Assembly (NCBI RefSeq): GCF_004010195.1
Contig: NC_057719.1
Span: 32,837,931-32,901,930 of the forward strand
Source: Chiloscyllium plagiosum
Taxonomy: Eukaryota
Length of the DNA: 64,000 nt
Direction of reading: 5' to 3'
The position numbers and the translations under genes were made by a program. Below are positions 6,256 through 52,690 of the stretch, one piece after another. The notes beneath the pieces are model-generated. The model made no database searches, was not told the origin of the DNA, and worked only from the letters and a program-made list of their open reading frames with translations. Numbering within the stretch: position 1 is the first letter of the stretch; each line of letters begins with the position of its first letter.

Positions 6256-6807
6256 CTACTCACACTCATGAACCACAACTTTCAGTACTGCAAGTAACAT
6301 ATACATTCAACACTACATCTCATCCTCACAAGCTCCCATACCTTTCTGCCCTCTGCACTTCGTACTCACTCACTGGGGACACTTTATAACATCTCCTGGT
6401 CCTACATCAGCGCGAACTGCTCTTCCATACATTGTCATCACAGTCAGTGCCTCCTTATGGCTCATTATAGAAAGGTTAGTGCACTCTCAAGACCCATGTC
6501 ACCACCCTATCCAGGCTGTCAGTCCTGTAATCCTGGAAGAGCACAGCAGTTCAGGCAGCATCCGAGGAGCAGCAAAATCGACGTTTTGGGCAAAAGCCCT
6601 TCATCAGGAATAAGGCAAAGAGCCTGAAGCGTGGACAGATAAGCTAGAGGAGGGTGGGGGTGGGGAGAAAATAGCATGGAGTACAATAGGTGAGTGGGGG
6701 AGGGGATAAAGATGATAGGTCAGGGAGGAGGGTGGAGTGGATAGGTGGAAAAGGAGATAGGCAGGTAGGACAAGTCATGGGGACAGTGCTGAGCTGGAAG
6801 TTCGGAA

Positions 6808-7653
6808 NNNNNNNNNNNNNNNNNNNNNNNNNNNNNNNNNNNNNNNNNNNNNNNNNNNNNNNNNNNNNNNNNNNNNNNNNNNNNNNNNNNNNNNNNNNNN
6901 NNNNNNNNNNNNNNNNNNNNNNNNNNNNNNNNNNNNNNNNNNNNNNNNNNNNNNNNNNNNNNNNNNNNNNNNNNNNNNNNNNNNNNNNNNNNNNNNNNNN
7001 NNNNNNNNNNNNNNNNNNNNNNNNNNNNNNNNNNNNNNNNNNNNNNNNNNNNNNNNNNNNNNNNNNNNNNNNNNNNNNNNNNNNNNNNNNNNNNNNNNNN
7101 NNNNNNNNNNNNNNNNNNNNNNNNNNNNNNNNNNNNNNNNNNNNNNNNNNNNNNNNNNNNNNNNNNNNNNNNNNNNNNNNNNNNNNNNNNNNNNNNNNNN
7201 NNNNNNNNNNNNNNNNNNNNNNNNNNNNNNNNNNNNNNNNNNNNNNNNNNNNNNNNNNNNNNNNNNNNNNNNNNNNNNNNNNNNNNNNNNNNNNNNNNNN
7301 NNNNNNNNNNNNNNNNNNNNNNNNNNNNNNNNNNNNNNNNNNNNNNNNNNNNNNNNNNNNNNNNNNNNNNNNNNNNNNNNNNNNNNNNNNNNNNNNNNNN
7401 NNNNNNNNNNNNNNNNNNNNNNNNNNNNNNNNNNNNNNNNNNNNNNNNNNNNNNNNNNNNNNNNNNNNNNNNNNNNNNNNNNNNNNNNNNNNNNNNNNNN
7501 NNNNNNNNNNNNNNNNNNNNNNNNNNNNNNNNNNNNNNNNNNNNNNNNNNNNNNNNNNNNNNNNNNNNNNNNNNNNNNNNNNNNNNNNNNNNNNNNNNNN
7601 NNNNNNNNNNNNNNNNNNNNNNNNNNNNNNNNNNNNNNNNNNNNNNNNNNNNN
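6808..7653. other. Assembly gap (846 N)
   Basis: Run of n. It falls where the RT C-terminus and GIY-YIG domain of the PLE are expected. Confidence 1.
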
Positions 7654-8789
7654 GTGCCCATGGCTACCCCTTTGGCCTGGAGGAAGTGGGAGGATGCGAA
7701 GGAGAAATTGTTATGGGTGAGGATCAGTTTGGCCAGACGAATGAGATTGTCGGTGGAAGGATACTGTTGGGGTTGTCGGGAGAGGAAGAAACGGAGGGCT
7801 TGGAGGCCCTGGTCATGGCGGATGGAGGTGTAGAGGGATTGGATATCCATGGTGAAGGTGAGGCGTTGGGGGCCGGGGAAACGGAAGTCTTGGAGGAGGT
7901 GGAGGGCGTGGGTGGTGTCTCGAACGTATGTGGGGAGTTCCTGGACAAGGGGCGATAGGACAGTGTTGAGGTAGGTAGAGATGAGTTCAGTGGGGCAGGA
8001 GCATGCTGAGACAATGGGTCGGCCAGGGTGGTCAGGCTTGTGGATCTTGCGAAGGAGGTAGAACTGGGCAGTACAGGGTTCCCGAACTATGAGATTGGAA
8101 GCTGTGGGTGGGAGATCTCCTGAGGTGATGAGGTTTTGTATGGTCTTGGAGATGATGTTTTGGTGATGGGGTGTGGGGTCATGGTCGAGGGGGCTGTAGG
8201 AAGAGGTGTCCTTGAGTTGGCGTTTGGCTTCAGCGGTGTAGAGGTCAGTGCGCCAGACTACCACTGTGTCCCCTTTATCTGCTGGCTTGATGATGAGGTC
8301 AGGATTGGATCAGAGGGATTGGAGGGCTGTGTGTTGTGAGGGTGAGAGGTTGGAGTGGGGCAGGGAGGTAGACAGGTTGAGGCGGTTAATGTCCCAGCGG
8401 CAGTTGGAAATGAAGAGGTTGAGGGCAGGTAATAGGCTAGTGCAGGGTGTCCAGGTGGATGCAGTGTGTTAGAGATGGGCGAAGGGGTCCTCGGAAGATG
8501 GGCGGGAATACTGATTGTGAAAGTAAGCTCGGAGGCGGCGGAAGAAATATTCGACATTACGGCATGTATTAAAATCATCGATGTGTGGATGGAGGGGGAT
8601 GAAGGTGAGTCCTTTGCTGAGGACTGATCGGTCATCCTCAGTGAGGGGAAGGTCTGGAGGGATGGTGAAAACTTGGCAGGGCTGGGAGTTGGGATCTGGT
8701 GTGGGTGTGGAGCTGGGAGTGGGGGCAGAGCCAGTGACTGGAGTGGGTGTGATGGTGGGGGGAATGGGGGAGGGAGTCATGAGCAGGGG

Positions 8790-9245
8790 CACCTCCACAC
8801 ATCTATTAGCCCTAGCTCCTTATTCAGATCCACCAGTTGTCTAGATCTAAGAGATATACCCATTGTATTCTTAGCTATGCAATCTGTCTCTAGGTTCATA
8901 ATACAGTTAAAATTTCCTCCTATAATTTTATGGCAGACCCCAAAAGCCATCAACTTAGAGAAAACTTTCATTACAAATTTACAGGGGCGCGCTGGGTGGG
9001 GCAATAAAGATTCAAAATTCCATATTCCTCTCTATATATTAGGGCTTTGTTCAGTATATTCCGTCCAGACTCATCTTTTATCTGGCTTAACATTTGGAAA
9101 GGAAGATTCTTCCGAATAAGAATGACTACTCTCCTACTTTTTGAACTGAAAGATGAGAAAAAAGCCTGATCAAATCCACCTTATTGTAGCTTTATGTGCT
9201 CTTTGTCAAGTAGATGTGTCTCCTGTAAGAGAGCTATGTCAACCC
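8790..9245 (-). pseudogene. L1-clade ORF2 AP-endonuclease fragment
   Basis: Minus strand: VDIALLQETHL..EHIKLQ*GGFDQAFFSSFSSKSRRVVILIRKNLPF...IKDESGR...ILNLYCP, frameshift, then IIGGNFN...LGLIDVWR. These are APE motifs QETH, N.Y.P, GGDFN and DxWR. Confidence 0.82.
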
Positions 9246-9352
9246 TTTCTTTTCATCCCCTCCCCCACTCACCTATTGTACTCTATGCTACTTTCTCCCC
9301 ACCCCCCCCCTCCTCTAGCTTATCTCTCCATGCTTCAGGCTCTCTGTCTTTA

Positions 9353-9387
9353 TTCCTGATGAAGGGCTTTTGCCCGAAACGTCGATT
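9353..9387 (+). ncRNA. Minimal type I hammerhead ribozyme motif in PLE pseudo-LTR (core intact)
   Basis: ttc CTGATGA a GGGC-tttt-GCCC GAAA cg TC ga. Core boxes intact, 4-bp helix II, palindromic ACGT in place of helix III, GUC triplet. Helix I is only about 2-3 bp. Activity untested. Confidence 0.7.
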
Positions 9388-10387
9388 TTGTTGCTCCTCT
9401 GATGCTGCCTGAACTGCTGTGCTCTTCCAGCACCATTAATCCAGAATCTGGTTCCCAGCATCTGCAATCATTGTTTTTAACCACCGTCCTGTAATCCTCA
9501 CAATCTCCAGATTACACAGACATGGATCCTTGAATCAAGCACCTGCCATGCCCTGGGGCAGGAACCTGAGCCAAAAAAGTACACTATTTATTAAGATCTT
9601 CCAGCTCACTGAGGATTCAGGCAATCTTATAATCTGCTGTGAAAGCTCTGCTTACATTTTAGCAGTTTTTGAACACCTCAGTTGAACCAATCCACAGCAT
9701 TCTAAAACAATCACCAATATTCCAAATGAAACAACCTATAATATTAAAAACATTAATTTGCCCTCTCTCACAATGTTTCATGGATATTTTATTTACAATG
9801 TTCCAATATTCAGATCCACGTCTTAGTTAAACATTAATCAACTCTTCTTTTGACCATACTTTGGATACCAATTTACATTGGAATCAGTACATTAGTTTTT
9901 GAGATTACTGTTTACAAACAGATAAACAAGGATGAAAACATTATCTCTCTCATCTTCAGTACTGGAGGTAATGAATTATATAAATGCATCTTTAATCGGT
10001 GCATGCCATGTTTTAAATCAACATCTTTTATTTTTAAAGTTATGTCCTCTTTAGTTTCAAATGAAGTTTCTATTATAATGTGCACTAAGATCCTAAATTT
10101 GTGTGGGTTTATAATCCTGCAAATTAGGTTATAATGAAGCTTTGCATACATGATGCAATTTATTTGAGAGTTCAGTTCTACATATCTTTGACTTAAACAC
10201 ATCAGTAGAGCGTCTGTCAAACACAAAATGGGCAAATAAATCAAGGTTATTACCTTGTCTTCTTGATCATTATCGCAAGTAAATTGGTTCCCCACGTTAG
10301 TACAAAATAGCATATCGACACCTAATGCTACTTTCATTCTTGTGAAATCTTTGGAATACTATATGGGAAAAGTGCAAAGCTATTCCA

Positions 10388-10855: not shown

Positions 10856-10995
10856 AGCGTGAGTCCCAGCCTTGAAGACATTTGAAACTCAGGTTTTAAG
10901 TGCAGGTATACCTATGCAGTTAGTGGGACTCTCTCAGGCTGCCTGGAGGAACACTGGTGCTCTACCTCAACCCTAGTCTGCCACTTGGAGGCAAC

Positions 10996-12240
10996 TTGGA
11001 GTTTTTTGAGGAAGTAACAAAGAGGATTGATAAGGGCAGAGCAGTAGATGTGATCTATATGGACTTCAGTATGGCGTTCAACAAGGTTCCCAATGGGAGA
11101 CTGATTAGCAAGGTTAGATCACACGGAATAGAGGGAAACTAGCCATTTGGATACAGAACTGGCTCAAAGGTAGAAGACAGAGGGTGGTGGTGGAGGGTTG
11201 TTTTTCAGACTGGAGGCCTGTGAACAGTGGAGTACCACAAGGACCAGTGCTGGGTCCACTACTTTTTGTCATTTACATAAATGATTTGGATGTGAGCATA
11301 AGTGGTACAGTTAGTAAGTTTGCAGATGTCACCAAAATTAGAGGTGTAGTGGACAGCGATGAGGGTTACCTCAGATTACAACAGGATCTGGACCAGATGA
11401 GCCAATGGGCTAAGAAGTGGCAGGTGGAGTTTAATTCAGATAAATGCGAGGTGCAGCATTTTGGGAAAGCAAATCTTAGCAGGACTTATACACTTAATGG
11501 TAAAGTCCTAGGGACCATTGTTGAACAAAGAGACCTTGGAGTGCAGGTTCATAGCTCCTTGAAAGTGGAGTCACAGGTAGATAGGATAGTGAAGAAGGCA
11601 TTTGGTATGCTTTCCTTTATTGGTTAGAGTATTGAGTACAGGAGTTGGGAGGTCATGTTGCGGCTGTACAGGACATTGGTTAGGCCACTGTTGGAATATT
11701 GCATGCAATTCTGGTTTCCTTCCTATCGGAAAGATGTTGTGAAATTTGAAAGGGTAGAGAAAAGATTTACAAGATTCTTGCCAGGTTTGAAGTATTTGAG
11801 CTCTTGGGAGAGGCTAAACAGGCTGGGGCTGTTTTCCCTGGAGCATCGGAGGCTGAGGGGTGACCTTATAGAGGTTTACAAAATTATGAGGGGCACGGTA
11901 AATAGGGTAAATAGACAAAGTCTTTTCCCTGGGCTGGCGGTCCAGAACTAAAGGGCATAGGTTTAGGGTGAGAGAGGAAAGATATAAAAGAGACCTACGG
12001 GGCAACATTTTCACACAGAGGGTGGTACGTGTATGGAATGAGCTGCCAGAGGAAGTGGTGGAGGCTGGTACAGTTGTAATATTTAAGAGGCATTTGGATG
12101 GGTACGTGAATAGGAAGGGTTTGGAGGGATATGGGCCGGGTGCTGACAGGTGGGACTAGATTGGGTTGGGATATCTGGTTGGCATGGACGGGTTGGACTA
12201 AAGTGTCTGTTTCCATGTTGTACATCTCTATGACTCTATA
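10996..12240 (+). mobile_element. Young 5'-truncated CR1 LINE (RT and 3' UTR)
   Basis: ORFs 10957..12159: [45 protein letters not shown]. Tail tctctatgactctat. Confidence 0.95.
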
Positions 12241-12362
12241 ACTTCAGACAATGGTGCCCAATGTATCCAAGGACCTGGAGACTGACTGGACAATTCGAGT
12301 TGGCTTTCAGCAATAGACCTCATTAGACCATCATTGAGGAGAATTGGCTCATGGCCACTTAC

Positions 12363-12584
12363 TGGAGAAACTGAGGTCTGCAGATGCTGGAGATCAGAGT
12401 CTAGAGTGTGTTCCTTGAAAAGCACAGCAGGTCAGGCAGCATCCGAGGAGCAGGAAAATCGACGTTTCAGGCCAGAGCACTTCATCAGGAACTTCCTGAT
12501 GAAGGACTCTGGCCCGAAACGCCGATTCTCCTGCTCCTCGGATGCTGCCTGACCTGCTGTGCTTTTCCAGCTAGAAAATCTCAA
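12363..12584. mobile_element. Palindromic PLE pseudo-LTR insertion (family A) with two hammerhead motifs
   Basis: ~75-bp inverted arms (12417-12491 and 12493-12567). TSD ctcatggc(c/t)acttac at 12348-12362 and 12585-12599. Confidence 0.85.
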
Positions 12585-12924
12585 CTCATGGCTACTTACA
12601 GGTGCGTGACTCTACTGACTCCTCCCACACAATCCTACCTCCAGGACAATGGTTTGGGTTGGTGGGCATTAAGGTTGATAGAGGAAACTGACAGGTCAGC
12701 TAGCAGTAAGATACTCTGCATCTACGGACTTCTGCGTTGGCCCTATCAGGGCCAAATCAATTCAACGCGTACATTCAGTTTCCAAAGGTATACTGGTGAC
12801 ATCCAACTCTACCTCTCATCCATCCACCACCTACATGCAGCTGAATTACTTCACTGACATCCAGGCTTGGGGGTTCCAGTTTCCTGTATTTCAACACCTG
12901 ATGTAAGCATATGTGAGCGTAAGA

Positions 12925-13526
12925 TGTATAGTTAGTGAGCTTGCGGATGACACCAAAATTGAAGGTGTAGTGGACAGCGAAGAAGGTTACCGCAGATTAC
13001 AACAGGATCTTGACCAGATGGGCCAATGGCCCTCTTGAAAGGATGTTGTGAAACTTGAAAGGGTTCAGAAAAGATTTACAAGGATGTTGCCAGGGTTGGA
13101 GGATTCGAGCTATAGGGAGAGGCTGAACAGGCTGGGGCTGTTTTCCCTGGAGCGTTGGAGGTTGAGGTGTGATCTTATAAAATTATGAGGGGCATGCAAA
13201 TGAAAAATAGACAAAATCTTTTCCCTGGGGTCGGGGAGTCTAGAACTAGAAAGCATAGGTTTAGGGTGAGAGGGGAAAGATATAAAGGAGATCTAAGGTG
13301 CAACCTTTTCACACGGAGGGTGGTACATTAATGGCATGAGCTGTCAGAGGATGTGGTGGAGGCTGGTACAATTACAACATTGAAAAGGCATCTGGATAGG
13401 TATATGAATAGGAAGGGTTTGGATGCATACTGGCAGGTGGGACTAGATTAAGTTGGGATATCTGGTGGGCATGGATGAGTTGGACAGAAGGGTCTGTTTC
13501 CATACTGTACATCTCTATGACTCTAT
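12925..13526 (+). mobile_element. CR1 3' fragment with an internal deletion of about 0.3 kb
   Basis: Similar to 11310-12240 but jumps at ~13030 from the QDLDQMGQW region to KDVVKLERVQ. Same tail. Confidence 0.9.
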
Positions 13527-13769
13527 GTAACTGTATTTAGATCCTAACAGAATCTCCATATGTTTTCTGTTATTTCCTTTGATCCATGAACCCATGTTCT
13601 TCATTTTCTTACAAAGAGGATATTGATTAATTTCCTTAACATATTTTGTGGGCAGCCCCAGAACAGTCCATTACTGCTAAAGAAAACTCATACAGGTCAG
13701 AGGTTAGAAAACCCATGATGAGTAACTCACCTCCTATCTCCTTTAAACCAGTTCTGCTGAACAAAGTAG

Positions 13770-14935: not shown

Positions 14936-15063
14936 CATTTCTAATGCTTTGGAAGCATAGAACTGAACTGCTCCCATGTTTAACAGAGATATATTCAATT
15001 ACAACAATATCTTAACATACTGATAGATCAGCGATTGAATGTCTTGTGTTCCTAATTACTAAT

Positions 15064-15339
15064 GATTTGGAAATGCCGGTGTTGGACTGGGGTGTACAAA
15101 GTTAAAAATCACACAAACCAGGTTAGAGTCCAACAGCTGAAAATGTGTTGATGGAAAAACACAGCAGGTCAGGCAGCATCCAAGGAGCAGGAGAATCGAT
15201 GTTTCGGGCTTGAGCCCTTCTTCAGTCTTTTGCAGCGCCGCTCCTTCATCAGGTGGTAGATGAAGGAGCGATGCTCCGAAAGCTAGTGTGCTTCCAATTA
15301 AACCTGTTGGACTATAACCTGGTGTTTTGTGATTTTTAA
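15064..15339. mobile_element. Palindromic PLE insertion (family B) with an embedded family A piece (~15137-15225)
   Basis: Arms match 47981-48178. TSD ctaattactaat at 15052-15063 and 15340-15351. Confidence 0.85.
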
Positions 15340-15364
15340 CTAATTACTAATAACAGTGTCAGAG

Positions 15365-18200: not shown

Positions 18201-20084
18201 TGGCGGGAATCTTATTGGGATCTGAACAATGTGGGCTGTGGAGAAATTTGTGGCAGAATTAGACTAGAATTCCATAGAGGCCAATCTTGACATCAGGAGT
18301 ATCTCGCTGCATCTTTTGGGGTGGATTGCCAATTAAGAGGGATTGCTGCTTGTTAAATGCAGTGTTGATGATCCAACACCCTTCATTAATATTCAGATGT
18401 TGTGTCAAATTTGCCAAACAAGCTAGATACTGAGAAAACATGACATGGAAATCGGAACCTGGTGGATTCAGCTCCCCACTTGCACCAAAGGACCTCCATG
18501 TTGGACATCGAGCAGCAATATTTTAGGTCACATTCAAAGGATATGGACCGCATGCACTGCACGTCCATGAACATTGGTATCTGAAATGTGCCGGTCTGTA
18601 AGACTGCTAATGGCAGATTTCCAATTCATTTACATGTACTCCTTTACTTCAATGCTGCCATGGATAACTATCATTGTAAAGCTGTAACAAGGACAGTGTG
18701 TGTCAAGGACTTACATTCATTTCCATGGACTCAACTATGGTGTATCTCTGGGATCTTTACTTACTGTCATAGTTCTCACTCACTCTCAGTTTACCTGAAT
18801 GTCTTGCCTTGTCTTACCTTTGTGTACTTTGCTCCCTCAGCCAGAAATATCAGGCTCATATTACTGCTGTGTTGCTTTGCCTGGTTTTACGCAGTTAAAA
18901 TCGCATAACACCAGGTTATGGCTCAACATGTACATTTGGAAGTACGAGCTTTTAGAGCATTGCTCCTTCATTAGGTAACTAGTTATGATTTTTAACTTTG
19001 TCCACCCCAGTCCAACACCGACACCTCCACATCGTGGTATTACACTGTCACAAAGCCAAGAAGCTTTTCATGGTATTGAGCTAGCCTCAGTAAAGCCAAG
19101 GGAGATAACCTTTGCTCAGGGACCCCAGCACAATAAGTCAAGACCAGCCTCTGATGCCAGTCCTGGAACTTGGAAATAGTCAGTTAGTCACTTGGGGTGG
19201 TGAGAGTCAGGATGGTCTCCACATAATGAATGAGGAGCTGAACATCAGACAGCCCACCACCCAACTTGAGGTTTACTGTCCTGCTGGGGGGAGCTACTTT
19301 ACTCCTGGAATGAGAAAGAGACGCATATTAAGGGAGATGAAAGTGCATGGTACAGCGGTTATGTTTGTGCAGGTCAAGAGGTGTCCCAAGTGAGTAAGTA
19401 GGCAGCACAGGGTTAGTGATTTTGGGGATTGGGCTGCGTGACAGTGAGTGAGGGAAGATGTTACAGCCAATAGTGGAAGTGGTACAGTGGTACAGGAGCA
19501 GAGGTGGAATAGGTGGGAGGTATCGGATGGTGGCAATTACAATGGTGGAAAGATGAAGGTCATTGACCATCCTTCATCCTGTACATTTCTTCAAATGGAT
19601 GTGAATGGTTTAACACAGATGGCAACCTTGGACCAAGCTGCAAGGTCTGGTGATGTGACCTCCATTGGTGGGCCTTAGCGAAGAGGAGCTCCTGCCTCTG
19701 CATCACCCATCCCAGCAGGAGCTCCAGGCTCCTTCCTGCACATTGGGTTACTGATTTCCCATTGGCTGCCATGTGCGAGGCAATTGTCAGGAACTATGCA
19801 GAGCAGCTCTGGACTAACAGTGCTTACCCAGGTGCATAATACACTTTTACGCATGGTACAGGCAAAGGATGTCAGTGAATTCCAGGATAACTGGTGAATA
19901 AAAAATGGCCTGGGTATGACATTGTAAACTCGGGTTGCAACTGGATGTAATGGATGTCGATTAAGTAGTTAATGAAGTGAGTGTGTTAAAATACAGTGAG
20001 AAAACTTGCTGTGCTCCGCAACAGAAATTGCTGCAGAAATTTGACCCAGCTCAGACTTAACCAAACAAACATAAGATACAGCCT
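18201..20084 (-). mobile_element. Probable decayed PIF/Harbinger element with Myb/SANT-like ORF remnant (~19550-19772)
   Basis: Minus strand MAANGK...RSLELLLGWVMQRQELLF...RSHHQTL / AWSKVA...RN / RMVNDL resembles the trihelix pattern (L..L...V..R...LF...AW..VA...C.K..NDL). Weak TIR-like ends ggcgggaatcttat and ataagatacagcc. Confidence 0.5.
18894..19033. mobile_element. Degraded PLE family B insertion
   Basis: gttaaaatcgcataacaccaggttat...gctccttcattaggt, then gatttttaactttgtccaccccagtccaacacc; same layout as 47981-48178. Confidence 0.8.
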
Positions 20085-21046: not shown

Positions 21047-21795
21047 AGAATAAAACAAAGAATTGCAGATGCTGAAAATCCAAAACAAAAACAGACATTG
21101 CTGAGAAACTCAGCAGATCTTGCAGCATCTGTGGAGAGAGAAACAGAATTAACATTTTAAGTCCAGTGACCATCCTTCAGAACTGATAGTAACTAAGAAA
21201 AGTTGTTTTATATGTAAAGGTGGATCATAAGCCACCATTTCTGCCATCTCTAGCAGAATGCCACTACAAGACACATTTCTCCTGTCTTCCCTTGTCAACA
21301 TTTCATAGGTTCCCCTCAGGACACCTTGATCTACGCTTCCTCCACTCCCAACACCATCCACATCTCTATGGCACCTACCGATGCAATTGTTAAAGGTATA
21401 ACAATTGCCCATTTGTCTACTCACTATCTAAGGCTCGAGATCAACCTTCCAGATGAAGCAGCAATTTACCTCGACTGCACTCAAACTAGTTTACTGTGCT
21501 TGCTGCTCACAATGTGGTCTCCTCTACACTGGGGAGATAAAACGCACACTGGATGACTACTTTGCTGAACACCTTTTGTCTCGCTACCTGTCATTCTTTC
21601 TCTCTCTCTGGGCTCCATTTCTGCCCATCTGCACATTCCTTTGCCACCGCACCCCACTCCTGACCTTTAGCTTATATACCATGTTTTCCTGGCTACTTCT
21701 GAAGAAAGGTCACTGAACCTGAAACATTAAGTCTGCTTCTTCTCCACAGTTGCCAGACTTGCTGAATTTCTCCAACGATTTCAGTTTTTGTTTTC
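21047..21795 (+). mobile_element. Degenerate PLE (family C) with GIY-YIG fragment and inverted pseudo-LTRs
   Basis: ORF 21453: FTSTALKLVYCACCSQCGLLYTGEIKRTLDDYFAEHL. Inverted ends at ~21050-21185 and ~21695-21795. Hammerhead motif actt CTGAAGA a aggt-cactga-acct GAAA ca TT aagt at 21695-21732. Confidence 0.8.
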
Positions 21796-23710: not shown

Positions 23711-23830
23711 TATGGTGTGCTGAAACGTCCAATTCCTGCTCCTCGGATGCTGCCTGACCTGCTGTGCTTTTCCAGCCCCACACTCTCGACTCTAATCTCC
23801 AGCATTTGCAGTCCTCACTTTTGCCTAGTA
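23711..23830 (+). mobile_element. Short PLE family A 3'-end insertion
   Basis: gaaacgtcc...ggatgctgcctgacctgctgtgcttttccagc...tgcagtcctcacttt. TSD aaaaagcaagtg at 23699-23710 and 23831-23842. Confidence 0.85.
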
Positions 23831-25950: not shown

Positions 25951-26320
25951 TGGAAAATGTGTTGCTGGAAAAGTGCAGCAGGTCAGGCAGCATCAAAGGA
26001 GCAGGAGAATCGACGTTTTGGGCATAAGCCCTTCTTCAGGAATCAGGAGGGTGTGCCAAGCAGGCTAAGATAAAAGGTAGGGAGGAGGGACTTGGGGGAG
26101 GGGCGTTGTTTACCTATCGCATTCCCAATGCCCCTCCTCCAAGTCCCTCCTCCCTACCTTTTATCTTAGCCTGCTTGGCACACCCTCCTCATTCCTGAAG
26201 AAGGGCTTATGCCTGAAATGTCGATTCTCCTGCTCCTTTGATGCTGCCTGACCTGCTGCGCTTTTCCAGTAACACACTTTTCAGTTCTGATCTCCAGCAT
26301 CTGCAGTTCTCACTTTCTCC
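25951..26320. mobile_element. Palindromic PLE family A insertion with ~155-bp inverted arms and two hammerhead motifs
   Basis: Arms ~25953-26108 and ~26127-26282. TSD tgga(c/t)gtttaaggga at 25936-25950 and 26321-26335. Confidence 0.9.
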
Positions 26321-30220: not shown

Positions 30221-30320
30221 CTAGGAGAAAGTGAGGGCTGCAGATGCTGAAGACCAGAGTTGAAAAGTATGGTGCTAGAAAAGCACAGCAGGCCAGGCAG
30301 CATCCGAGGAGCAGGAGACC
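30221..30320 (-). mobile_element. Short PLE family A 3'-end insertion in the Gypsy integrase
   Basis: ggagaaagtgagggctgcagatgctg...gaaaagcacagcaggccaggcagcatccgaggagcagg matches 12364-12455. Confidence 0.85.
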
Positions 30321-39669: not shown

Positions 39670-40930
39670 GCATTGGCTCTAGGTTACAGCAAGATAAAGA
39701 TAGATTACCAGAGAAATTAGGAATAACATTAGATTCCAATAGGAGACACAAAAATTGCAAGAAAAAGCACAAAGCCTGAGGATTGGGAAAGGATTAAAAC
39801 CCTTCAAAAGATGACAAAAAGATTGCCCAAGTGGGGGAAAATAGAGTATGAGAGGAAACTTGCAAGAAACATAAAAACTGACTGTAAAAGCTTCTATAAG
39901 TATGCAAACACACAAAAAAAATGAAGACAATTATCTGTTACAGTCAGAAAAGTTGGAAGTTACAGTGACGGACAAAGAAATGAAGAAAGAATTGAACATG
40001 TATTTTTGCTGTGTCTTCACAAAAGAGGGTGCAAGTAATTTCTCTGAAATGTTCGGGAATCAAGTGTCCACTGAGAGGGAGAATTGAAGAAAGTCAGTAT
40101 TATTAAAAAAAAAGAAGAGCTGCAGAAACTAATGGGGTTAAAGTCTAACAAATTGCCAGTGCCTGACAATCTGTATTGCAGGATACTACAGGAAATGGCC
40201 CTGGAAATATTGATGCAATAGCATCATCTTCTAAAATTCTGGAGACTCTGGAACAGCTCCAGAGTGGGGAGTGGCAAACGTAACCCCAATATTGAACAAA
40301 GGAGGGAGGGGAAGAACAGACAATTATGGACCAGTTAACATCAGTAGTCGGAAGAATTCTGGAACCTATTATAAAAGATGTGATAACAAAACACTTGAAA
40401 TGTGTTAATGAGACTAGATAAAGTCAGCATGAGTTTATGATTGCTTAACTAATTCTCTAGAATTTTTTGGCAATGTGGCCAATAGAATAGTTAAGGGAGA
40501 ACCTGTGGATGTGATATATTTGGATTCTGAAAAAGGCTTTTGATAAGTTCCCACAGAAGAGTTAATGGAAATAATAAATCATGCAAGATTGTGGTAATAT
40601 TCTGTCATAGATTGAGAACTGGTTGACAGGCTGAAATTAGACAGTGGTAATAAATGGATCTTTTTCTATGTAGCAGGCAAAGAAGTGTACTGTAGGAATC
40701 AGTGCTTGGCCCCCAGCTATTCACAATATAGATTTATAACTTGCATAAGGGAATGAAATGCAATATTTCCAAGTTTGTTGATGACACAAAACTGGTCAGG
40801 ATTGTGGGTTGTGAGTAATAAGGAGGATGCAAAGAGGCTTCAGGATGACTGAGACAAGTTGGGTATATGGGTAAGCACGTGACAGATGCAGTATAAAAGT
40901 GGATAAATGTGAAGTCATACACTTCGGTGT
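39670..40930 (+). mobile_element. Older CR1 ORF2 fragment (tether and RT)
   Basis: ELNMYFCCVFTKE, W.VANVTPI..KGGR...DNYGPV, PVDVIYLD, SKFVDDTKL, with stops and frameshifts. Confidence 0.85.
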
Positions 40931-41600
40931 CATAGAGTCAAAGAGATGTACAGCATGGCACAGACTCTTCAGTCGAACTTATCCATGCTAATCAGATATC
41001 CTAAATTAATCTAGTCCCATTTGCTAGCACTCTATACCCTTCCTATTCATGTACCCATCCAGATGCCTTTTAAATGTTTTAATTGTACCAGCCTCCACCA
41101 CATCCTCTGGAAGCACATTCCATACATGCACTACTCTTTGTGTTAAAAAGTTATCCATTAGGTCCCTTTTAAATCTGTCCCCTCTCACCCTAAATCCATG
41201 TCTTCCCAAACCAGCAAAAAGAACTTGTCTATTTACCCTATTCATGCCGCTCATAGTTTTATAAACCTCTGTCAGGTCACCCTCAGCCTCTGACGCTCCA
41301 GGGAGAACATCCCCAGCCTACTCAGCCTCTCCCTGTAGCTCAAACCGTCCAGCCCTGGCAACATCCTTGTAGATCTTTTCTGAACCCTTTCAAGTTGCAC
41401 AACAATCTTTCTCTGGGAGGGAGACCAGGATTGCACACTATATTCCAAATATGATCTAACCACTGTCTTGTACAGCCACAACATGACCTCACAACTCCGA
41501 TACTCAATGCTCTGACCAATAAAGGAAAGCATACTAAACTATCTTCTTCACTATCCTATTTATTTCAGACTTCACTTTCAAGGGACAATGAACTTGCATT
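40931..41600 (-). mobile_element. Young CR1 3' fragment inserted antisense into the older CR1
   Basis: ORFs 41272..41532 and 41024..41254 match the 11600-12240 copy. Confidence 0.92.
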
Positions 41601-43238
41601 CCAAGAGGTATGGGGAACAAGCAGAAATATTGTAGTGAAATGGAGGATCAGCCATAATCATGTTGAAAGGTGGAGCATGCTCTTAGGCTCACATGTGCTC
41701 CTGGTTTCTACAATACAGCTCTGTGTTAGGCAGCATTAACTTCTGCACTGTCTGTTTTGAATGGCTGTATGCAGAAGTCACCTCTGTCACATCGCACACA
41801 GTTAGGCTCTCACTTCTATAGCTGTAGTCTGTGCTCTTGATGGACAAATAAAATGGAAATTTCTAATTACAAAAGAAAAGTGATTAAAATGTTTGAGAAA
41901 GATCAAGAACTGGAAGGTTGAATCTCCTGAATATCCTCACAGCTGGAGAAAAAGAGGCACTGGAGCTGGGAGGCATAAAGACAGCGCATAAAACGTTGGT
42001 GAGACCCAGACAGAGAGTGCCCAGGTCGATACAAAAACATGTTCCAGGTTATGAGTAGTCAGAGGTCTGGAGTCTCAAGGCCCCAGACAACCAGAAGATG
42101 ACTGCCAATGCCAGTGTAGAGCATGGAGCAGGAAATTAGCCTTTCACTTTTATGTCAGCTAACACTACATTCACAAGTAGTTGAGAAACTATTTGGATTT
42201 CAGAGGGTTAAATTATATGTTTAGATGTCACCTTGCTGCTTAATTGCTTATAATGAATTTTAACACGCTGCATCACAGAGATATTCCTTCAGAAATGGCT
42301 GGTTCAGCGTCGGTTAATGGGTGCAGTGAGAAAGAGCACACTCAATGACATCAATGCATTTCCCAAGCCTGAGACTCACATGCTAACAGCTTCTGATCTG
42401 TGACATTTTAAGGGTTTTTAAGAAAAGTACAACAGGCTACAGAAGCTGTAAGATTCACACAGGGGTGTGAGGAAAATTTGGGAGAAATCTTTCTATTTAG
42501 CATTAGAATTGGCTTTATTGTCACATATACTCAAATAAAAAGTGTATAAGTTGCTTGTGAGCCATAAGCCTATCTCACATGTATCATATTGTCTTTTCTG
42601 GTGCTCCTTTGAAGTTCTCACTGTACGATGCCTTGTCACCATTCTCCTCCATATCCTTATCCTTGAGGGAGGTATCATGCTCCTAGTTGTCTTCATTGTT
42701 CAACACTTCTCTGTATTTTAACACCAGGTTTTATAGTGAACAGCTGACTACAAAGATATGCAACAACTTTGCTGGGACATATTGAAAGGCTGAGGTATAT
42801 AAAGACCCTGTGAGTCATATCTTTGTAAGCAATGTTTTGCATGATGGTCACTTGAGTTGTCCTATGGCAACTATTGCATGTCTCCTCTGCATTTGCACTT
42901 CGTTTTCGACAGACATACAGAGCCAAAGAAGCACCTGAAAAAGCCAGGTATGTTGGATTACTGAAATATGACAGCATCGTGACAGTTTCCCAGGAACCTA
43001 GCACAAACCTGAAAGGTCCTTTTGCAATGCTCTCACACACACACACTTAGAGCAAGAGAATGTTGTTCCAGTTAATAGAGGCTGCTGTCTACTCTCTTCA
43101 GGGCCATATGTATGCAGTCGATAATGGTCCTGATTCCTATAGAACTCTCAGTTTAAATATCCAGTGCATATATTGACCCTTCCCCTTCAATAGATCATTA
43201 ATGACCATCTTGAGGTGGCAATGAGCTATAAAATATGA

Positions 43239-43293
43239 AGCTCCTTGGATGCTGCCTGAACTGCTGTGCTCTTCCAGCACCACTAATCCAGAA
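43239..43293 (+). mobile_element. 55-bp PLE family A fragment
   Basis: gctccttggatgctgcctgaactgctgtgctcttccagcaccactaatccagaat matches ~9393-9447. TSD tata(a/g)aatatga at 43227-43238 and 43294-43305. Confidence 0.8.
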
Positions 43294-44664
43294 TATAGAA
43301 TATGAGATCCCATAGATATCTATAATGGATCCTGGGAATGATCCTGAGGTGTTGAGATTCAGCACAACAGACGCCTTCACTACAGCAACAGGAGTGTGCC
43401 ACTTCCCCTTGGTCTCGGATCCTCTTCTGTCACTTTGTACAGTCTCCCTGGAGAGACTCAATCTTTGGTGACACTGCTGCTCTAGCATTTGTGGAAAGCA
43501 GGGCCTCAGAGGTCACACCTCTCTGGTGGGTAGTGTGATTTGTGCAAGAGGCTGGTAGTTCACCAGCCTGTGTTTTCCTTGTCCTTCTAGCCTCCTAATC
43601 CTGATGCCGGAGTGCTGCTGCACCCTCCCTTTCTGATGCTCCTAAATGAGATCTCAAGATCTGATTGAATGGGGCACATTGAAAATTGTTGCATTCAATT
43701 CTCAGGACCTTGAGCCCCAAACTCCATGCATACAACTACCAAGTTTGACAGCACAATCCATTATGTCAGATAGATTTGGATAGACTCCAGATTGGGATTG
43801 TCACTGCCTACTCTTTCACACCTTCCCTACTGCCACCACTTACAACGGCTGCTGACTACAGTAACAATGTATCTTCAACTGAACATCTACTTCCTTAGAG
43901 TTAGCGAAGATGAATTCTTGCTTTCTCATGCATCAAAATATAAAATCTCTGGTAAATATCTTTTCATGACCTAACTGTTTAGTATATATAATTACCTTCC
44001 CATTACCTTCAAGCATGACTTCTACCTACCAGAATGGCTTCCTGTGGGAACTACCCTCCCCAGTAGCATGAACACATTGCGCTTCCCTTCTGAAGCCATT
44101 TTGATATCATTCTGCTGCTCTTTATTTCTCTCAAAACCCCAGTCTAAAACACAATATGTCATGGCAACATGAACCACTGAGAGAATGCACAAAATTGATG
44201 ACAGAACAATGAATCACTCCTTAAAAAAATCAGTGTAATACATTTTCCACTTCATTTTGTTTTATAGGCCATTGGTGTGCTTATGACCTATAGTTGAATG
44301 TCTTTTTGACAAGATTCTCAAGTGTCATACACCAATGCATGTCTTAAAATTAGTCAAGGTTAAGGGACTGACTAAACTGTCTGGTAATTTTAGTTAATGG
44401 GCCTAATTTGAATAATTATATTGAATCAAAGAGCTTTTTCACCACATAAAAAGCAAGGCATGAAAAGGCTGCATCAGTGTTATATGATTTCCTTTCTAAA
44501 AACTGTAAATGATGCTCTGTATGATGAAAGGATGCATTCATATATTACATATTTTAAAATTTTAAACAAGCTGACATATTGCTGGATTTCTCTCAAGCAA
44601 TTTATCTTCAGAGTTTTTTATATGAATTATCAGAATTTGAAATATCTCTAAGTATAATTCTTAC

Positions 44665-44845
44665 CATCAGTGTACTTAATGACTCGAATGGTGGAATCAC
44701 CTTCTCCAAATCGTGTAATCGGTGTCAGACGAACTTCATAGGCCTCAGGCTTCAGTAATTCAGTCAGGTTGTGTGTGATTAATTCTCCTGATTGGATCAT
44801 AGTATTCATTGAAATTTCTTGTTCCCACCAACGCTGTTGGCCAGT
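44665..44845 (-). CDS. MDGA2: MDGA2 coding exon, C-terminal half of the fibronectin type III domain (181 nt, phase 0 to phase 1)
   Basis: Minus strand: ttttattttcag|ACT...GAT G|gtaaga. Translates [60 protein letters not shown], matching vertebrate MDGA2 as I recall it ([10 protein letters not shown]...[11 protein letters not shown]...[13 protein letters not shown]). Not in the ORF track. Confidence 0.93.
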
Positions 44846-47290: not shown

Positions 47291-47580
47291 ACCCTTCCTC
47301 AGAAGTTCTGGGGAGGGGTTACTCGACCTGAGATGTTGGCTCTGGTTTCTCTCCACAGTTGCTACTTGACCTGTTGAGCTTTTCCAGCAATTTCTGATTT
47401 ATAGCATCCACAGTTCTTTCAGTTTTTATTTTCCTAGATACCATCAGTTCTGAGGAAGGGCTACTCGACCTGAAACAATAACTCTCATTTCTCTCTGCAG
47501 ATGCTGCCAGACTTGCAGAGCTTTTCCAGCAGTTTCTGCTTTTGTTACAAATTTACAGCATCTGCAGTTCTTTTGGTTTA
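47291..47580 (+). mobile_element. PLE family C insertion: short inverted stub plus two direct tandem pseudo-LTR units
   Basis: Units ~47305-47435 and ~47445-47575, each starting gttctg(g/a)gga(g/a)ggg.tactcgacctga. aacaagtctg duplicated at 47281-47290 and 47581-47590. Confidence 0.78.
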
Positions 47581-47980
47581 AACAAGTCTGGAGTGTGATG
47601 GAATGCTCTTCACATGTCTGGATGGTTATAATTTCAGACTCATTCAAAAGGATCTACACATTCAGGATGAAGGAGCTCAGTTGATTGACATCCTATTTAT
47701 CATCAGAAAAAAAATCACTCCTTCTCCCAATGGAGTACTATGGCAGCTGTATGTACCACCTACCAGATGCAGTGCAGCAACGTATCGAGGTTTCTGCAGC
47801 ATGACCTTCTAAACCCATGACCTCTACCAACCAGACACACACAACGCTACCATTTTTAAGTTGCACACCTTTATGACTTGAACATACATCGCTTCATCAT
47901 TGCTGAATCAAATTCCAGAACTCTATACTTAACAACACAAAGGCAACACATTCAGCACAAGCAGTGAAGCAGTTAGTAAA

Positions 47981-48178
47981 GTTAAAAATCACACAACACC
48001 AGGTTATAGTCCAACAGGTTTAATTGGAAGCACTAGCTTTCGGAGTGTAGCTCCTTCATCAGGTGGTTGTCCGCTCCGAAAGCTAATGCTTCCAATTAAA
48101 CCTGTTGGACTATAACCTGGTGTTGTGTGATTTTTAACTTTGTACACCCCAGTCCAACACCGGCATCTCCAAATCATG
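47981..48178. mobile_element. Young palindromic PLE family B insertion inside an older LINE tail (~47590-48290)
   Basis: 68-bp inverted arms 47978-48045 and 48074-48141 with one mismatch. TSD gcagttag(t/a)aaa at 47969-47980 and 48179-48190. Confidence 0.9.
48031..48065 (-). ncRNA. Minimal type I hammerhead ribozyme motif (core intact), sense to MDGA2 pre-mRNA
   Basis: Minus strand CAC CTGATGA a GGAG-ctaca-CTCC GAAA gc TA GTG. Helix I CAC/GTG, 4-bp helix II, palindromic AGCT, CUA triplet. Activity untested. Confidence 0.72.
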
Positions 48179-48671
48179 GCAGTTAGAAAAGGCAGCATTC
48201 CCATCCCCTTCATAACTGTAATGTGGGATGGACAAATGTTGGTCTTGCCAGTGACATTCACATTTTGGAATGAATTATAAAAAAAAAATTAAAACCAATG
48301 TCTCAGAATACAGGTTTTAAAGTCACATAAACATTTTAAATTGATTACAATTTGTACTGCAATGATATGTAACTCTAAGACCAGCTCCTTGCCAAGGATA
48401 CAATGTCACAGTGAAGCTGGTTTTCTCCTCAATCTCCAACCTGTATTTGCTTGAGATCATTTCAATTCTATAGAATTCATACCAAGAATATGAATGTCAA
48501 AGCCATTTGGAAATGATAAGGCTGGAATTCCAGTCTTCAAACACACATTGACTTGGAGTTAGAAACAAGATTGTGGTATAATCCTTCACAGATGAAAATA
48601 TGAGAAAGAAGAGTCATATAGTTCAGTGCGCAAATAATGAAAAGCTAATAATTCACAAATATTGGCATTTA

Positions 48672-50255
48672 CATAGTCATGAAGTCGTACAGCACAGAAA
48701 CAGACTCTTTGGTCAAACCAGCCCATAATCCCAAACCAAACTAGTCCTACCTGCTTGCACTTTCCTATAATCTCTCATAACATTTCTTATTTGCATACTT
48801 ATCCAAACGTCTATTTTAAACATTGTAACTGTACTCACTTCCACAACTTCCACTGGAAGTTCATTCGACATACAAACCATTCCGTGTAAAAAAAAAATAC
48901 TCCTCATGCCTTTATAAAACCTTTCTCCTCTCATCTTAAAAATATGCCTTCAGGCTTGAAATCCCCCACCCTAAGGAAAATAAAACACCCACCATTCATC
49001 CTATTTATACCCCTAATGAATTTATAAATCTCTATTAGGTCAACTCTCAACCTCCTAAGCTCCAGTGAAAAATGCCCCAGTTTGTCCAGCATCTCCTTAT
49101 AACACAAACCCTCCTTTCCTGGCAACTTCCTGTCAAATCTCTTCTGAACCCTCTCCAATTTAATAATGTTCCTCCCATAACAGGAAGACCAGAACTGGAC
49201 ACAGCACTCCAGAAAAGGCCTCACCAATGTCCTATACAACCTCAATGTGACATCTCAACTCCTGCATTCATAAGTCTGAGCATTGAAGGCAAGCATGCTA
49301 TATACCGTCTTAACCACCCAGTCTACCTTGACGCAAATTTTAAACAATTATGCACCTGAACCCCTAGGTCTCTGTATTCTAGGTGATGGCCTAATGATAT
49401 TATTGCTGGACTGTTAATCCAAAGAGCCAGGTCAAGTTCTGGGGACCTGGGTTTAAATTCCACCATGGTAGATGGTGGAATTTGTATTCAATAAAAAGTC
49501 TATAATTAGGAGTCTCATGATGACCATGGAAAGCCTATTTGGTTCACTAATGTCCTATGGGAAAAGAAACTGCTATCATTAACTGGTCCATTCTATCTTT
49601 GACTTCAAAGCCACAGCAATGTGGCTGACTATTAACTGCCCTCTGGGCAATTAGGGCTGGGCAAGAAATGCCAGCCTAGCTGGAGATTCCCTCATCCTGT
49701 GAATGAATGAAAAAAGCCCAAAGCCCTACTTTTAATTGTATAAGTCTTGCCTTTGTTTGTTTTTACCAAAATGCAAGACTTCGCATTTATCCAAATTAAA
49801 CTCCATCTGCAACTCTTCAGTCCTTGTCACTACTGATCAAGATTTCTTTGTAATCTTAGATAGCCTTCTTCACTGTCCACTATATGACTGATCTTGGTGT
49901 CATCTTCAAAATTACTAACCATGTTTTCTATGTTCTCCTCTAAATTGTTCATATAAATGACAAACCAAAGTGGACCCAGTGCCGATCCCTGTGGAACACT
50001 GATGGCCACAGGCCTTCAGTCTGAAAAACAACCCACCATCACTCTCTGACTCCTGCCGTTAAGCTAATCTTGTATCCAATTGGCAAGCTTACCCTGAATC
50101 CCACGTGATCTAACTTTACCAATTAGTCTATCATGTGGAACCTTGTCAAATGCTTTACTAAAGTCCATGTAAATAAATTCTACCCCTCTACCCTCATCAA
50201 TCTTCTTGGTTACTTATTCAAAAGACTCAATCAAGCTTGTGAGACATGATTTCCC
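48672..50255 (-). mobile_element. CR1 fragment (RT to 3' UTR) interrupted by a SINE
   Basis: ORFs 48931..49245 and 48713..48934. SVPQGSALGPLWF at ~49960-50000 on the minus strand. Confidence 0.9.
49383..49715 (+). mobile_element. tRNA-derived SINE (not HE1) with LINE-derived tail
   Basis: Head ggtgatggcctaatg...gacctgggtttaaattcc. Tail gggcaattagggctgggcaagaaatgc...gaatgaatgaaaaaa is shared with the LINE ends at ~14245-14305 and ~62971-63043. Confidence 0.75.
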
Positions 50256-52004
50256 TGTGGTTAGGATGCTGCCAAAGCATTCCCACAAGCAATGGTGACA
50301 GGATTGCTTCACAAAGTGTACACTGTACAGCCACTTAAAAAGTGTCACAATGTTCATTTTCACATGAAACACGAGAGATTTTACATGTTTGATAACTCTG
50401 GAGTAAGATTGAGGGAATGTATAAATGTCAGCTTCCCATTAAAGTCGCTTGCATATCTGACTTCTAAAGAAGCTCAGACTTTCACTTAGGACAAGTAAAA
50501 CCTGTTTGTGTAAACTAAGTGAGAAAACAGATTCTGTAGACCACTGGGGAATTTGCAATCAACACACTTTGTGTTTAAAGCTCCCCTGCAGTCAGTAAAG
50601 CAACTTTCAGCTCAGAATTCAATCATTTGTTTATTGTTTCTTCAAATATTATAATGGGTATGTGCTTCCCTGTCAAGAGACAAAGCAGTCTGTGAATGCA
50701 GTAAAACTTCATGCGTCATGGGAATTGAACACAAAAACTTTTATCGACAATTGTTTGATAGAAAAAGAAAACTCAAATCTCAATTAATTTAAATGACCAG
50801 ACATTATGAATCTGCATAAAAGGTTAGAGTGCAGTTCATCTTTATTAATGCACAAAAATGTGATGAATTAAATAATAAATATTAGAGTTGTATTTTGCTA
50901 CTTAATTTTGTGTAAGTTCAGCATAAATCATGAAATGCATAACACAATGGCAAACTATGCCAGTGTGCAATGCTGCAATCATAATGCTATGTTATTAATT
51001 ACAATGAAGCAGATCTGAATGGTAAATAACAAAATTAAAAGAAAAATACAGTCTGTCGCCCGCAGTTAATGATATGGTCATAAGCTACTGTCAAGCACAA
51101 AAGAAAATCAATGTCAGTGATTATGAGAGTAAGTGTGAAAGCATAAATCCTGGTTCCTGCAGGATTTATATACAACAAAGTAGCCACGATGTAAAATTCA
51201 TAAAGCATATTTGGGATAGTTCCTTAAAACGTTTCTTAAAAATGTTGTGGATCAAAATCAAGGATTAACCTGTTTTGGATTCGGTGTTGTCTAATGAGGC
51301 ATGTTTAATTTTTTAAAAAGTCAGAGTAAAAGATCCCCAGGAAACAGTGACAGCAACATGGTAGAATTTAGCAGTCAGCTTGAGAGAGAGAAATTTGGAT
51401 TCAAAACAACTGTGCTAAGCTTAAATAAGAATAACTAAGGAATTGAATGTAGAGCTCTCTGGGGTAGACTGGGGAAGGGGTTAGCAGCAAAGATAATTTA
51501 AGAACAATGGGAGATGTTGAAGAAAATAGTTCATGCTTCACAACAATTATATATATATATATATATATCCCATTGAGAAAGAAGGATTCTAGGAAGGGGA
51601 TAACCAGCTGGGGAATTTTCAGAAGTTTATGGTAGCATGAAATCAAAAGACAAAAGCATATAATGTATCAAAGAGTAATGGTAAGACAGAGGACTATGAA
51701 AGTTTCTAAAAACAAAAATAGATAATCAAATAAAAATAAAGCAAGCAAAAATAAACTATGAAGGCAAATTAGAAAGTAACATAAAAGCAAATAGCTAGAC
51801 CTTCGTTAAATAAAAAGGAAAAGAGAGGCCAAAGTTAACAATTGGAGCATGAGGCTGGATAAATAATAATTGAGAACCAGGGAATGGCAAACGAGTTGAA
51901 TAAGTGCTTTTCCTCCATCACTAATAGCATTCTAACAATAATAAATACTCACAGGGCAAAAGAAGGGAATGAAATGAACATATTAACTATCATTGAGAAA
52001 AAGT

Positions 52005-52690
52005 TCAAGATTTGTGTAAAGATTTGTAGCTTGGGTATCGGTTGCTGTGGTTGTGGGTGTGTTCGCCGAGCTGGGAATTTGGTTTGCAGTTGTTTTGTCC
52101 CCTGTCTAGATGAGATCTTCAGTGCTGTGGAGCTTTCTGTGAAGTGCTGCTGTACTGTGTTAGTTGGAATTTATTTGCTTTTGTTCCCGCTGCTTCTGGT
52201 TGCTTGTTGCGGTTTTCATTATAATGGTCGGTATATTGGTTCGAGGTCAAAGTGTTTATCGATGGAGACTGTGAACGAGTGCCATGCTTCTAGGAATTCT
52301 CTAGCTATCCTCTGTTTAGCTTGTCCTGTTATTGTTGTGTTGTCCCGGTTGAACTTATAGTCCTTGTTGTCTGTGTATAGGTACTAGGGCCAGCTGGTCA
52401 CAGCGTCTAGTGACTAGTTGACGTTCATGAATGCAGATTGCTAGCTGTCTGCCTGTTTGTCCTATATAGCATTTCATGCAGTCTCTGCATGGAGTCTTGT
52501 ACACCACATTTATCCTGCATATGATGGGCATTGAGTCTTTTGTTCTGGTGAGTTGTTATCTGAGCGTGTCTGTCAGATTATGTACTGTCATAAGTCCGAG
52601 TGGTCGGAGGAGTCGGGCTGTCAGTTCCAAGATGTCAGAGGACAACCAGAGAATTCCTAGAAGCTTGGCACTCATCCATGGACTTTTGAT
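52005..52690 (-). mobile_element. PLE of a different (Poseidon-like) family: GIY-YIG, 3' end and a short inverted stub
   Basis: Minus strand NVVYKTPCRDCMKCYIGQTGRQLAICIHERQL. Degenerate hammerhead gca CTGAAGA t...aAAA at ~52085-52125. 52650-52680 is inverted relative to 52270-52300. Confidence 0.82.

Follow-up and report, generated by a model that had tools for sequence, protein, structure and literature searches.

Minimal hammerhead motifs in an MDGA-family gene of the shark Chiloscyllium plagiosum belong to the end repeats of Penelope-like retrotransposons

Penelope-like elements (PLEs) of metazoans carry minimal type I hammerhead ribozymes in their end repeats (pseudo-long terminal repeats, pLTRs), so the class of motif treated here has been known since 2014 (Cervera and De la Pena 2014, PMC4209133). 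The 2014 paper describes a type I core with an extra base between A9 and 10.1, the pair G10.1-C11.1 and a palindromic 15.2-16.2, with several covarying families per genome, mostly as single truncated copies with some opposite-strand pairs; its available part reports low in vitro activity and contains no in vivo evidence, shark example or analysis of copy ends. Endonuclease-positive (EN+) PLEs of the Neptune and Penelope/Poseidon groups possess one open reading frame (ORF) encoding a reverse transcriptase (RT) followed by a GIY-YIG endonuclease, and their copies show 5' truncation, an inverted 5'-truncated partner and, at one end, a tail of 30-40 bp (Craig et al. 2021, PMC8557442). In Poseidon_Ac of the green anole, two internal RT starts define the tail, extension proceeds on both strands, uncut RNA is the main template and the hammerhead is protein-assisted (Frangieh et al. 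2024, PMC11167929). These three papers state as open what function the PLE hammerheads have and whether the weak versions of animals ever cut in cells. Here we analyse a 64,000-nucleotide stretch of Chiloscyllium plagiosum (contig NC_057719.1, positions 32,837,931 to 32,901,930; hereafter the window), in which such motifs recur within an MDGA-family gene. They share the features of core, families and copies given in the 2014 description, at a different scale: about 4,000 motifs were counted in coelacanth and about 9,000 in Xenopus, by another search, whereas exact copies of only two patterns number about 118,000 in this genome.

The motifs of the window are the end repeats of five EN+ PLE families, and most of the inserts that carry them are truncated, head-to-head, CpG-decayed by-products of autonomous elements. 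Our full reading, to which we give a probability of roughly 0.7, adds that most short copies likely arose when the RT copied only the first 90-130 bases of an RNA that was likely uncut and likely started four bases before the ribozyme core. Three observations go beyond the known kind: a pile-up of copy 5' ends ahead of the core, a pairing of one tailed with one tail-less arm, and U6 sequences joined at the scissile bond.

All 15 motifs reported in an earlier note on this DNA are present at, or a few bases off, the places it gave. With a strict descriptor (exact CTGANGA and GAAA, helix II of at least 4 bp, and NUH) we found 5 motifs in the window against a mean of 0.05 (maximum 1) over 40 dinucleotide shuffles, and with one core mismatch allowed 12 against 0.65. 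An Rfam scan of the window gave no hammerhead match at E<=5, as expected for motifs so minimal, and below the gathering score returned only hairpin-driven microRNA matches. The motifs show the CUGANGA/GAAA/UH core, the extra base, G10.1-C11.1 and a palindromic helix III of 4 nt, and their assignment to the minimal type I hammerheads of PLE pLTRs is supported. They had been described as intact or decayed on both strands; both kinds do occur, although only two of the 15 are fully intact, combining core, G10.1-C11.1, palindromic helix III and helix I:

9356-9383, plus strand: family A hammerhead, intact, antisense to the host gene; cleavage predicted after 9383
48034-48062, minus strand: family B hammerhead, intact, in sense orientation to the host gene; cleavage predicted after 48034, motif predicted to be locked in a long hairpin

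An independent scan placed both cuts where they had been predicted. In the other 13, G12, G5, the NUH, a helix pair or the 5' part is gone. For comparison we used a genome sample of 140 stretches of 10 kb taken at round coordinates (1,358,210 non-N bases; a few stretches are adjacent and two are seemingly duplicated, and all were kept), in which 50 of 107 strict motifs are fully intact. Helix II and the sequence past the cut separate five families, as proposed, and helix II keeps its pairing while differing between them; the listed motifs comprise seven of family A (several subfamilies), four of B, one of C, two of D and one of F (52089-52122, with a long helix II). Helix I also changes with family (ATTC/GAAT in A, CAC/GTG in B, ACTT/AAGT in D, and AGCT/AGCT in C, the last read from one locus elsewhere, L013, and from the plus-strand partner in the window); covariation of helices I and II is here a reading of natural copies, without a formal statistic. 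Three CpGs lie inside the family A motif, and G12A occurs in 20 of 114 copies and G16.2A in 26 of 114, against 0-5% at most non-CpG sites. While every listed motif is real, the list omits headless or further decayed copies near 21201 (-), 23722 (+), 30318 (-), 36090 (+), 43240 (+), 45429 (-), 47304 (+) and 48073 (+).

The motifs had been placed mostly in non-coding inserts of 100-400 bp. A separate non-coding class was not borne out: family A has an RT-coding copy in the window and the motifs of families C, D and F adjoin endonuclease-coding remnants, from which it follows that the inserts are pieces of coding PLEs. The elements concerned are:

6533-8789, minus strand: family A (probably Neptune-type) PLE copy, 5'-truncated, RT-coding, with a tail-less 3' end; ORF 6720-8309, homology stops at 8789, run of N at about 6809-7652
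6580-6607, minus strand: family A hammerhead with G12A, predicted dead (motif scan)
9252-9479, plus strand: inverted partner arm, with tail, of the 6533-9483 unit
21417-21795, plus strand: family D copy with endonuclease remnant 21417-21575 and motif 21699-21728
35150-36215, both strands: inverted pair of family C that retains endonuclease C-terminal remnants, with motif 35195-35225 (-, NUH lost) and a decayed partner near 36090 (+)
47304-47580, plus strand: tandem of two old family D copies, with motif 47450-47479 and a decayed motif at 47308
52000-52690, minus strand: old family F copy with a GIY-YIG remnant near 52400-52520 and a decayed long-helix motif at about 52089-52122, with intact relatives elsewhere; possibly Poseidon-like

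The RT of the window's family A copy, which alone gave no match in a Pfam search, is 75% identical to an 893-residue protein (P0002) from a long open copy elsewhere in the genome, and the family identification therefore rests on the longer copies. P0002 is a single ORF with RT (RVT_1, E 6e-8) followed by GIY-YIG (E 3.5e-4, just under the Pfam cut-off), and between them lies a CX4CX2C linker, CNRRRCNTC, which fits the zinc-finger-like CX2-5CXXC feature of Neptune, a feature also true of Nematis; by ORF layout and linker, as these are described in PMC8557442, family A would be of Neptune type. A first look with the 6533-8789 RT gave 40,742 candidates in the genome, of which 150 were scored. In the DNA examined, 36 of 48 matches to the endonuclease C-terminus have a motif within 1.2 kb downstream, mostly of family A at about 200 nt (about 197-212 nt past the ORF end in most cases), a placement in which family A differs from Poseidon_Ac (PMC11167929). 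Family B motifs lie 447 and 751 nt downstream of endonuclease matches at two loci (34% identity), and the family C motif is likewise downstream of an endonuclease. The long open PLE frame (L032:3383-6061) opens with a unit of about 38 residues repeated four times almost without change, which may be a local duplication or an artefact of assembly.

As regards their anatomy, the short inserts are for the most part pairs in head-to-head orientation, flanked by a target-site duplication. Duplications of 8-19 bp were found in 34 of 63 testable pairs of the sample, against 2 of 63 shifted controls, and in 10 of 13 window elements tested, some of them short or doubtful; the entire 6533-9483 unit is bounded by one of 13-15 bp. 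The remaining elements of the window are as follows:

12359-12587, both strands: family A head-to-head pair, motifs 12461-12488 (-) and 12496-12523 (+) both decayed, minus arm alone tailed, 15-bp duplication
15063-15341, both strands: family B head-to-head pair, motif 15257-15285 (+) lacking its first two core bases, 12-14 bp duplication
15139-15225: family A piece interrupting that pair, motif 15198-15225 (-)
18893-19038, minus strand: old family B copy plus its partner's tail, motif 18946-18974 with G5A and G12A
23722-23829, plus strand: tailed family A copy starting inside the motif, 15-bp duplication
25951-26321, both strands: family A head-to-head pair with 158-nt arms, motifs 26012-26039 (-, G12A) and 26195-26222 (+, CpG-decayed), 15-bp duplication
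30223-30318, minus strand: tailed family A copy without motif
32529-32720, both strands: family B head-to-head pair, motif 32635-32663 (+) with G12A
43240-43294, plus strand: family A stub without motif, 12-bp duplication
47973-48179, both strands: family B head-to-head pair (containing the intact 48034-48062 motif), plus arm tailed, 8-13 bp duplication

The family A piece at 15139-15225 replaces about 20 bases of one family B arm, either by nested insertion or by a template switch between families. The copies have two preferred 3' ends, at about +60 and about +95 from the cut, the latter corresponding to the known tail. In the young A subfamily an AATAAA stands about 50 bases past the cut, just before the tail-less end (L032:3146-3151, minus); other A subfamilies are without it. 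Among 45 family A pairs, 7 were set aside for other ends, and 34 of the 38 classifiable ones join one tailed to one tail-less arm (P 3e-7); in family B, with 2 of 22 set aside, 19 of 20 do so (P 2e-5). The 5' truncation, the inverted partner and the 30-40 bp tail at one end are those of EN+ PLEs; beyond the published description (PMC8557442), figures are given here for the near-strict one-tail rule and for the 5'-end peak. The one-tail pairing fits the anole element, with its two internal RT starts and extension on both strands (PMC11167929), and we infer that both primings were part of one insertion event.

Non-LTR retrozymes resemble these copies in having type I hammerheads and PLE kinship (Cervera and De la Pena 2020, PMC7229834; bioRxiv 10.64898/2026.07.22.740005) and in reaching a six-figure scale, with 126,247 canonical hammerheads in axolotl (PMC7229834). 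They differ in being head-to-tail tandems with mostly canonical motifs, whereas those studied here have minimal motifs, lie dispersed in head-to-head arrangement and are linked to coding PLEs: head-to-tail arrays of ORF-less hammerhead units are absent from the window, save for the one old two-copy tandem of family D, and coding remnants are present. This bears on whether the short copies could be non-autonomous mini-elements, akin to SINEs (short interspersed elements) or retrozymes and amplified from short masters of their own, as might be suspected from the lack of upstream sequence in about two thirds of young-subfamily copies and from the existence of non-autonomous PLE derivatives (bioRxiv 10.64898/2026.07.22.740005; PMC8557442). 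Short copies and ORF-linked long ones, however, have the same subfamily-diagnostic bases, the junctions vary from copy to copy, and both tandem arrays and a canonical helix III are lacking, and we hold such an origin to be very improbable.

We then considered where copies begin, giving positions relative to the cut, on which scale the core begins at -28. In the 140-stretch sample, 86 of 246 family A copies start at -36 to -26, compared with 14 in the 50 bases upstream, and 30 of 87 family B copies start in the corresponding peak, compared with 2. Copy 5' ends thus cluster just ahead of the ribozyme core and not at the cut; plain truncations at the cut number 4 of 246 (P 0.045 uncorrected, two of them explained by microhomology), with no peak beyond that. 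Genome-wide counts (3.56 Gb) with probes at a fixed anchor in the young subfamily gave 19,734 copies immediately ahead of the cut and 18,257 immediately past it, 15,186 in the core and, above the core, 5,373 at 14-19 nt and 4,825 at 35-40 nt. The probe just past the cut misses a variant present in about 11 of 100 matches listed, so the loss across the cut is a few per cent at most. The flanks of unpaired peak copies are mostly unrelated, several with visible duplications, and a reference artefact behind the peak is unlikely in view of this inspection and of the probe counts; a few older peak copies run on into the pyrimidine-rich sequence of unreferenced subfamilies. The start region of family A reads TCATTCC, which fits the initiator consensus. 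The pile-up suggests that the RNA of the element starts there, at about -32, and was copied uncut by run-off. An internal pLTR promoter has been described in the D. virilis element (PMC2377424).

Several points weigh against this proposal. The D. virilis start lies upstream of a 75-bp intron and not at the ribozyme (PMC2377424). A 5' end of the RNA itself was not seen. When the reads of one single-cell run were aligned to a young copy, their molecule starts formed no cluster, and 92% of these reads continue into unrelated sequence, most of them deriving from host-embedded copies; a second run gave none. The sample holds no overall excess of G before copy starts (13 of 59, with 16.8 expected). 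G does precede 6 of 10 sampled copies that start at ATTC, and genome-wide it precedes ATTCC 434 times against 100 for T, but at no more than 2 of 11 inspected ATTCC places does the G lie outside the partner arm and the duplication, the rest being mostly arms, duplication or substitution. The peak spans about 10 nt and in B more than that, and no clear initiator is seen in B. Lastly, a complete partial-tandem source element (pLTR plus full ORF) was not assembled, the 12 long loci being 5'-truncated or broken by N.

The same pile-up would result if the RT stalled or switched template there, either at the edge of a C/U-rich tract or by snap-back on the self-complementary TTCCTGAAGAA, with pairs arising by fold-back of one cDNA. 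Such a process would account for the inverted partner of 41 of 91 A peak copies, for the short microhomology at many junctions and for G counts without a clear cap signature. It accounts poorly for the many unpaired peak copies whose duplication lies directly at the start and for the slow loss above the peak (5,373 to 4,825 over 21 nt); moreover, since the enzyme would reach the ribozyme fold from its 3' side, a stall is expected near +5, where there is no peak. We therefore regard stalling or switching as unlikely and prefer a transcript start ahead of the core.

Whether the hammerheads ever cut can be approached through U6 chimeras. Hammerhead cleavage leaves a 5'-OH end. Mature U6 carries a cyclic phosphate at its end. 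RtcB ligates U6>p to 5'-OH RNA, giving U6/LINE-1 chimeric pseudogenes in which a 5'-truncated retroelement follows the U6 3' end and its T tract (Moldovan et al. 2019, PMC6789731). A genome-wide search with a U6 3'-end pattern returned 44 matches, all listed, against 3 for the reversed control, and eight of them run directly into nucleotide 1.1: seven of family A, two of which are arms of one insertion, and one of family B. None of the 44 continues with another position of the A or B end repeats. In the loci examined we counted 63 distinct U6 junctions, scored against references for families A and B only; nine join family A, seven at offset 0 and two inside the ORF (-449 and -490). With the family B case, which is not among the 63, this gives eight loci with U6 joined at the predicted scissile bond. 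That bond holds the start of 1.6% of ordinary copies, so that seven of nine has P of about 1e-11 (3e-8 with a generous 5%). By eye, U6 also joins a family F tail at the cut at one further locus (L282), with a one-T ambiguity. The window itself contains none of these chimeras.

As ligation and template jumping both require an RNA end at the bond, the U6 junctions point to cutting there, and we consider it likely from these junctions that they record real cutting in the germ line. The contrary view, that the ribozymes never cut in vivo and U6 was joined by template switching at a preferred pause, agrees with the anole data, which in the available part include no reads ending at the cut site (PMC11167929), and with truncations at the cut that are faint at most. 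It is hard to reconcile with seven of nine U6-A junctions falling on a bond so seldom used by ordinary copies, or with the fact that the U6-joined copies are of differing subfamily variants, lack microhomology and have the same offset in family B; we find it distinctly improbable. The U6 chimeras thus set this genome apart from Poseidon_Ac, and from U6/LINE-1, where junctions are variable and the nuclease is unknown (PMC6789731), whereas here they lie at the scissile bond of a PLE ribozyme.

Other U6 copies were seen among the same loci (L212, L216-L234, L252-L291); in many the partner is the 5' end of a SINE-like repeat, in some a LINE (long interspersed element) piece and in one a tRNA-like sequence. 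At two loci (L256, which equals L228, and L280) the two arms of an inverted pair share one U6-to-cut-site junction, which would follow if the chimera predated the insertion or one arm was copied from the other.

Our preferred mechanism can be outlined as follows. An internal pLTR promoter would start the RNA at the initiator-like TCATTCC; the element's protein would nick both target strands and prime once at each internal site; and the two cDNAs would run off the RNA 5' end and be joined head to head. The ribozyme may cut a minority of RNAs, probably aided by the element's protein or a second RNA, and the 5'-OH product would now and then be ligated to U6 and then retrotransposed. Inserted copies would decay, quickest at the three CpGs within the motif. 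If the RNA begins at the ribozyme's first helix, cutting would remove its capped 5' end and so act as an off-switch. We give about an even chance to the wider idea that the copies are a fossil read-out of the Penelope life cycle, in which the RNA would begin at that helix, cutting would be an off-switch and not maturation, uncut RNA would be copied from two internal sites at once into mirror-image inserts, and the rare cut RNAs would be trapped by U6 ligation.

As to the host, the motifs had been placed in the introns of one neural gene. Two exons, both matching an MDGA1 chain (5oj2), identify an adhesion-type gene of the MDGA family, presumably with a neural role and perhaps MDGA2 rather than MDGA1:

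3254-3414 (ends approximate), minus strand: exon with the start of the MAM domain (Pfam MAM E 8e-8; 5oj2 E 4e-18)
44665-44845, minus strand: exon with the end of the domain preceding MAM, which we take to be fibronectin-III (splice-site scan; 5oj2 E 5e-8)

Twelve of the listed motifs lie between these exons and three upstream of the second. When 150 short ORFs, almost all of them drawn from a list of 166, were compared with Pfam, the MAM exon was the only match. An MDGA-family host agrees with the neural gene proposed, but the gene is not special, since the window is as dense in motifs as the genome at large, with 79 strict motifs per Mb where the sample has 78.8 and 269 A and B copies per Mb where it has 245, which rules out gene-specific enrichment. 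The suspicion of a very large and diverse set genome-wide was well founded, one family A pattern having 93,987 exact copies and one family B pattern 23,926, where the reversed controls have 0. Extrapolated to the whole genome, intact motifs number about 131,000 and A and B end fragments about 870,000.

It might be supposed that the host uses the intronic ribozymes to cut or tune its MDGA pre-mRNA, the intact 48034-48062 motif being on the sense strand and domesticated intronic hammerheads being known in amniotes (PMC6155905). Such domesticated hammerheads would be canonical in fold, single-copy and conserved across species; those of the window are minimal, highly repeated and decaying, and occur at the average density. 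On the sense strand there are eight motifs, seven of them broken; the remaining one is predicted to be hairpin-locked (-132.8 kcal/mol for the hairpin against -107.0 for the hammerhead fold, about 26 kcal/mol apart). No same-strand tandem pair of intact motifs occurs in the window, so the dimer mechanism cannot act there in cis, and because folding of an inverted pair would close off the motif, cutting of the host pre-mRNA is improbable. Host use is thus unlikely on the predicted folds, and a regulatory role in MDGA expression has almost no credence with us. For the gene itself the elements are ordinary repeat background.

As an entry to the question of what PLE ribozymes do, the locus is of moderate interest. 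So many copies allow their ends to be read as a record of the template RNA, and the U6 junctions offer a base-exact, testable sign of cleavage; if correctly read, they are the first in vivo evidence we have found that animal minimal PLE hammerheads cleave. In a search of titles and abstract openings we found no published account of shark PLE hammerheads, of U6-Penelope chimeras, of mapped PLE 5' ends or a peak of them, or of twin priming; the supplements of PMC4209133 and of the 2026 preprint, Dfam and Repbase lay outside that search. The preprint sampled one cartilaginous fish (bioRxiv 10.64898/2026.07.22.740005), and a text search of PMC11838501 finds no mention of Penelope or ribozymes.

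Some other repeats of the window deserve description. A motif-like match at 3951-3985 was dropped because it belongs to another repeat, a separate short one present in three copies at 3896-4586; U6 copies at L248 and L288 join sequence similar to it. The roughly 460 bases at 8791-9250, between the arms of the large family A insertion and inside its duplication, are no part of a PLE. By similarity (80% over 378 nt to L066, 65% to L203) they belong to another repeat, which looks by eye like LINE-1-type endonuclease coding sequence; they may be foreign sequence captured at insertion. A remnant of an LTR retroelement with an RT RNase H domain (Pfam E 7e-17) occupies 27154-28786. Numerous LINE 3' fragments, presumably of CR1 type, and tRNA-headed SINE-like repeats occur at 32-270, 10993-13533, 40929-41605, 48666-49379, 52913-53563 and elsewhere; an RVT_1 match lies among the LINE fragments at 11118-11627, and a 119-bp tandem duplication at 32-270.

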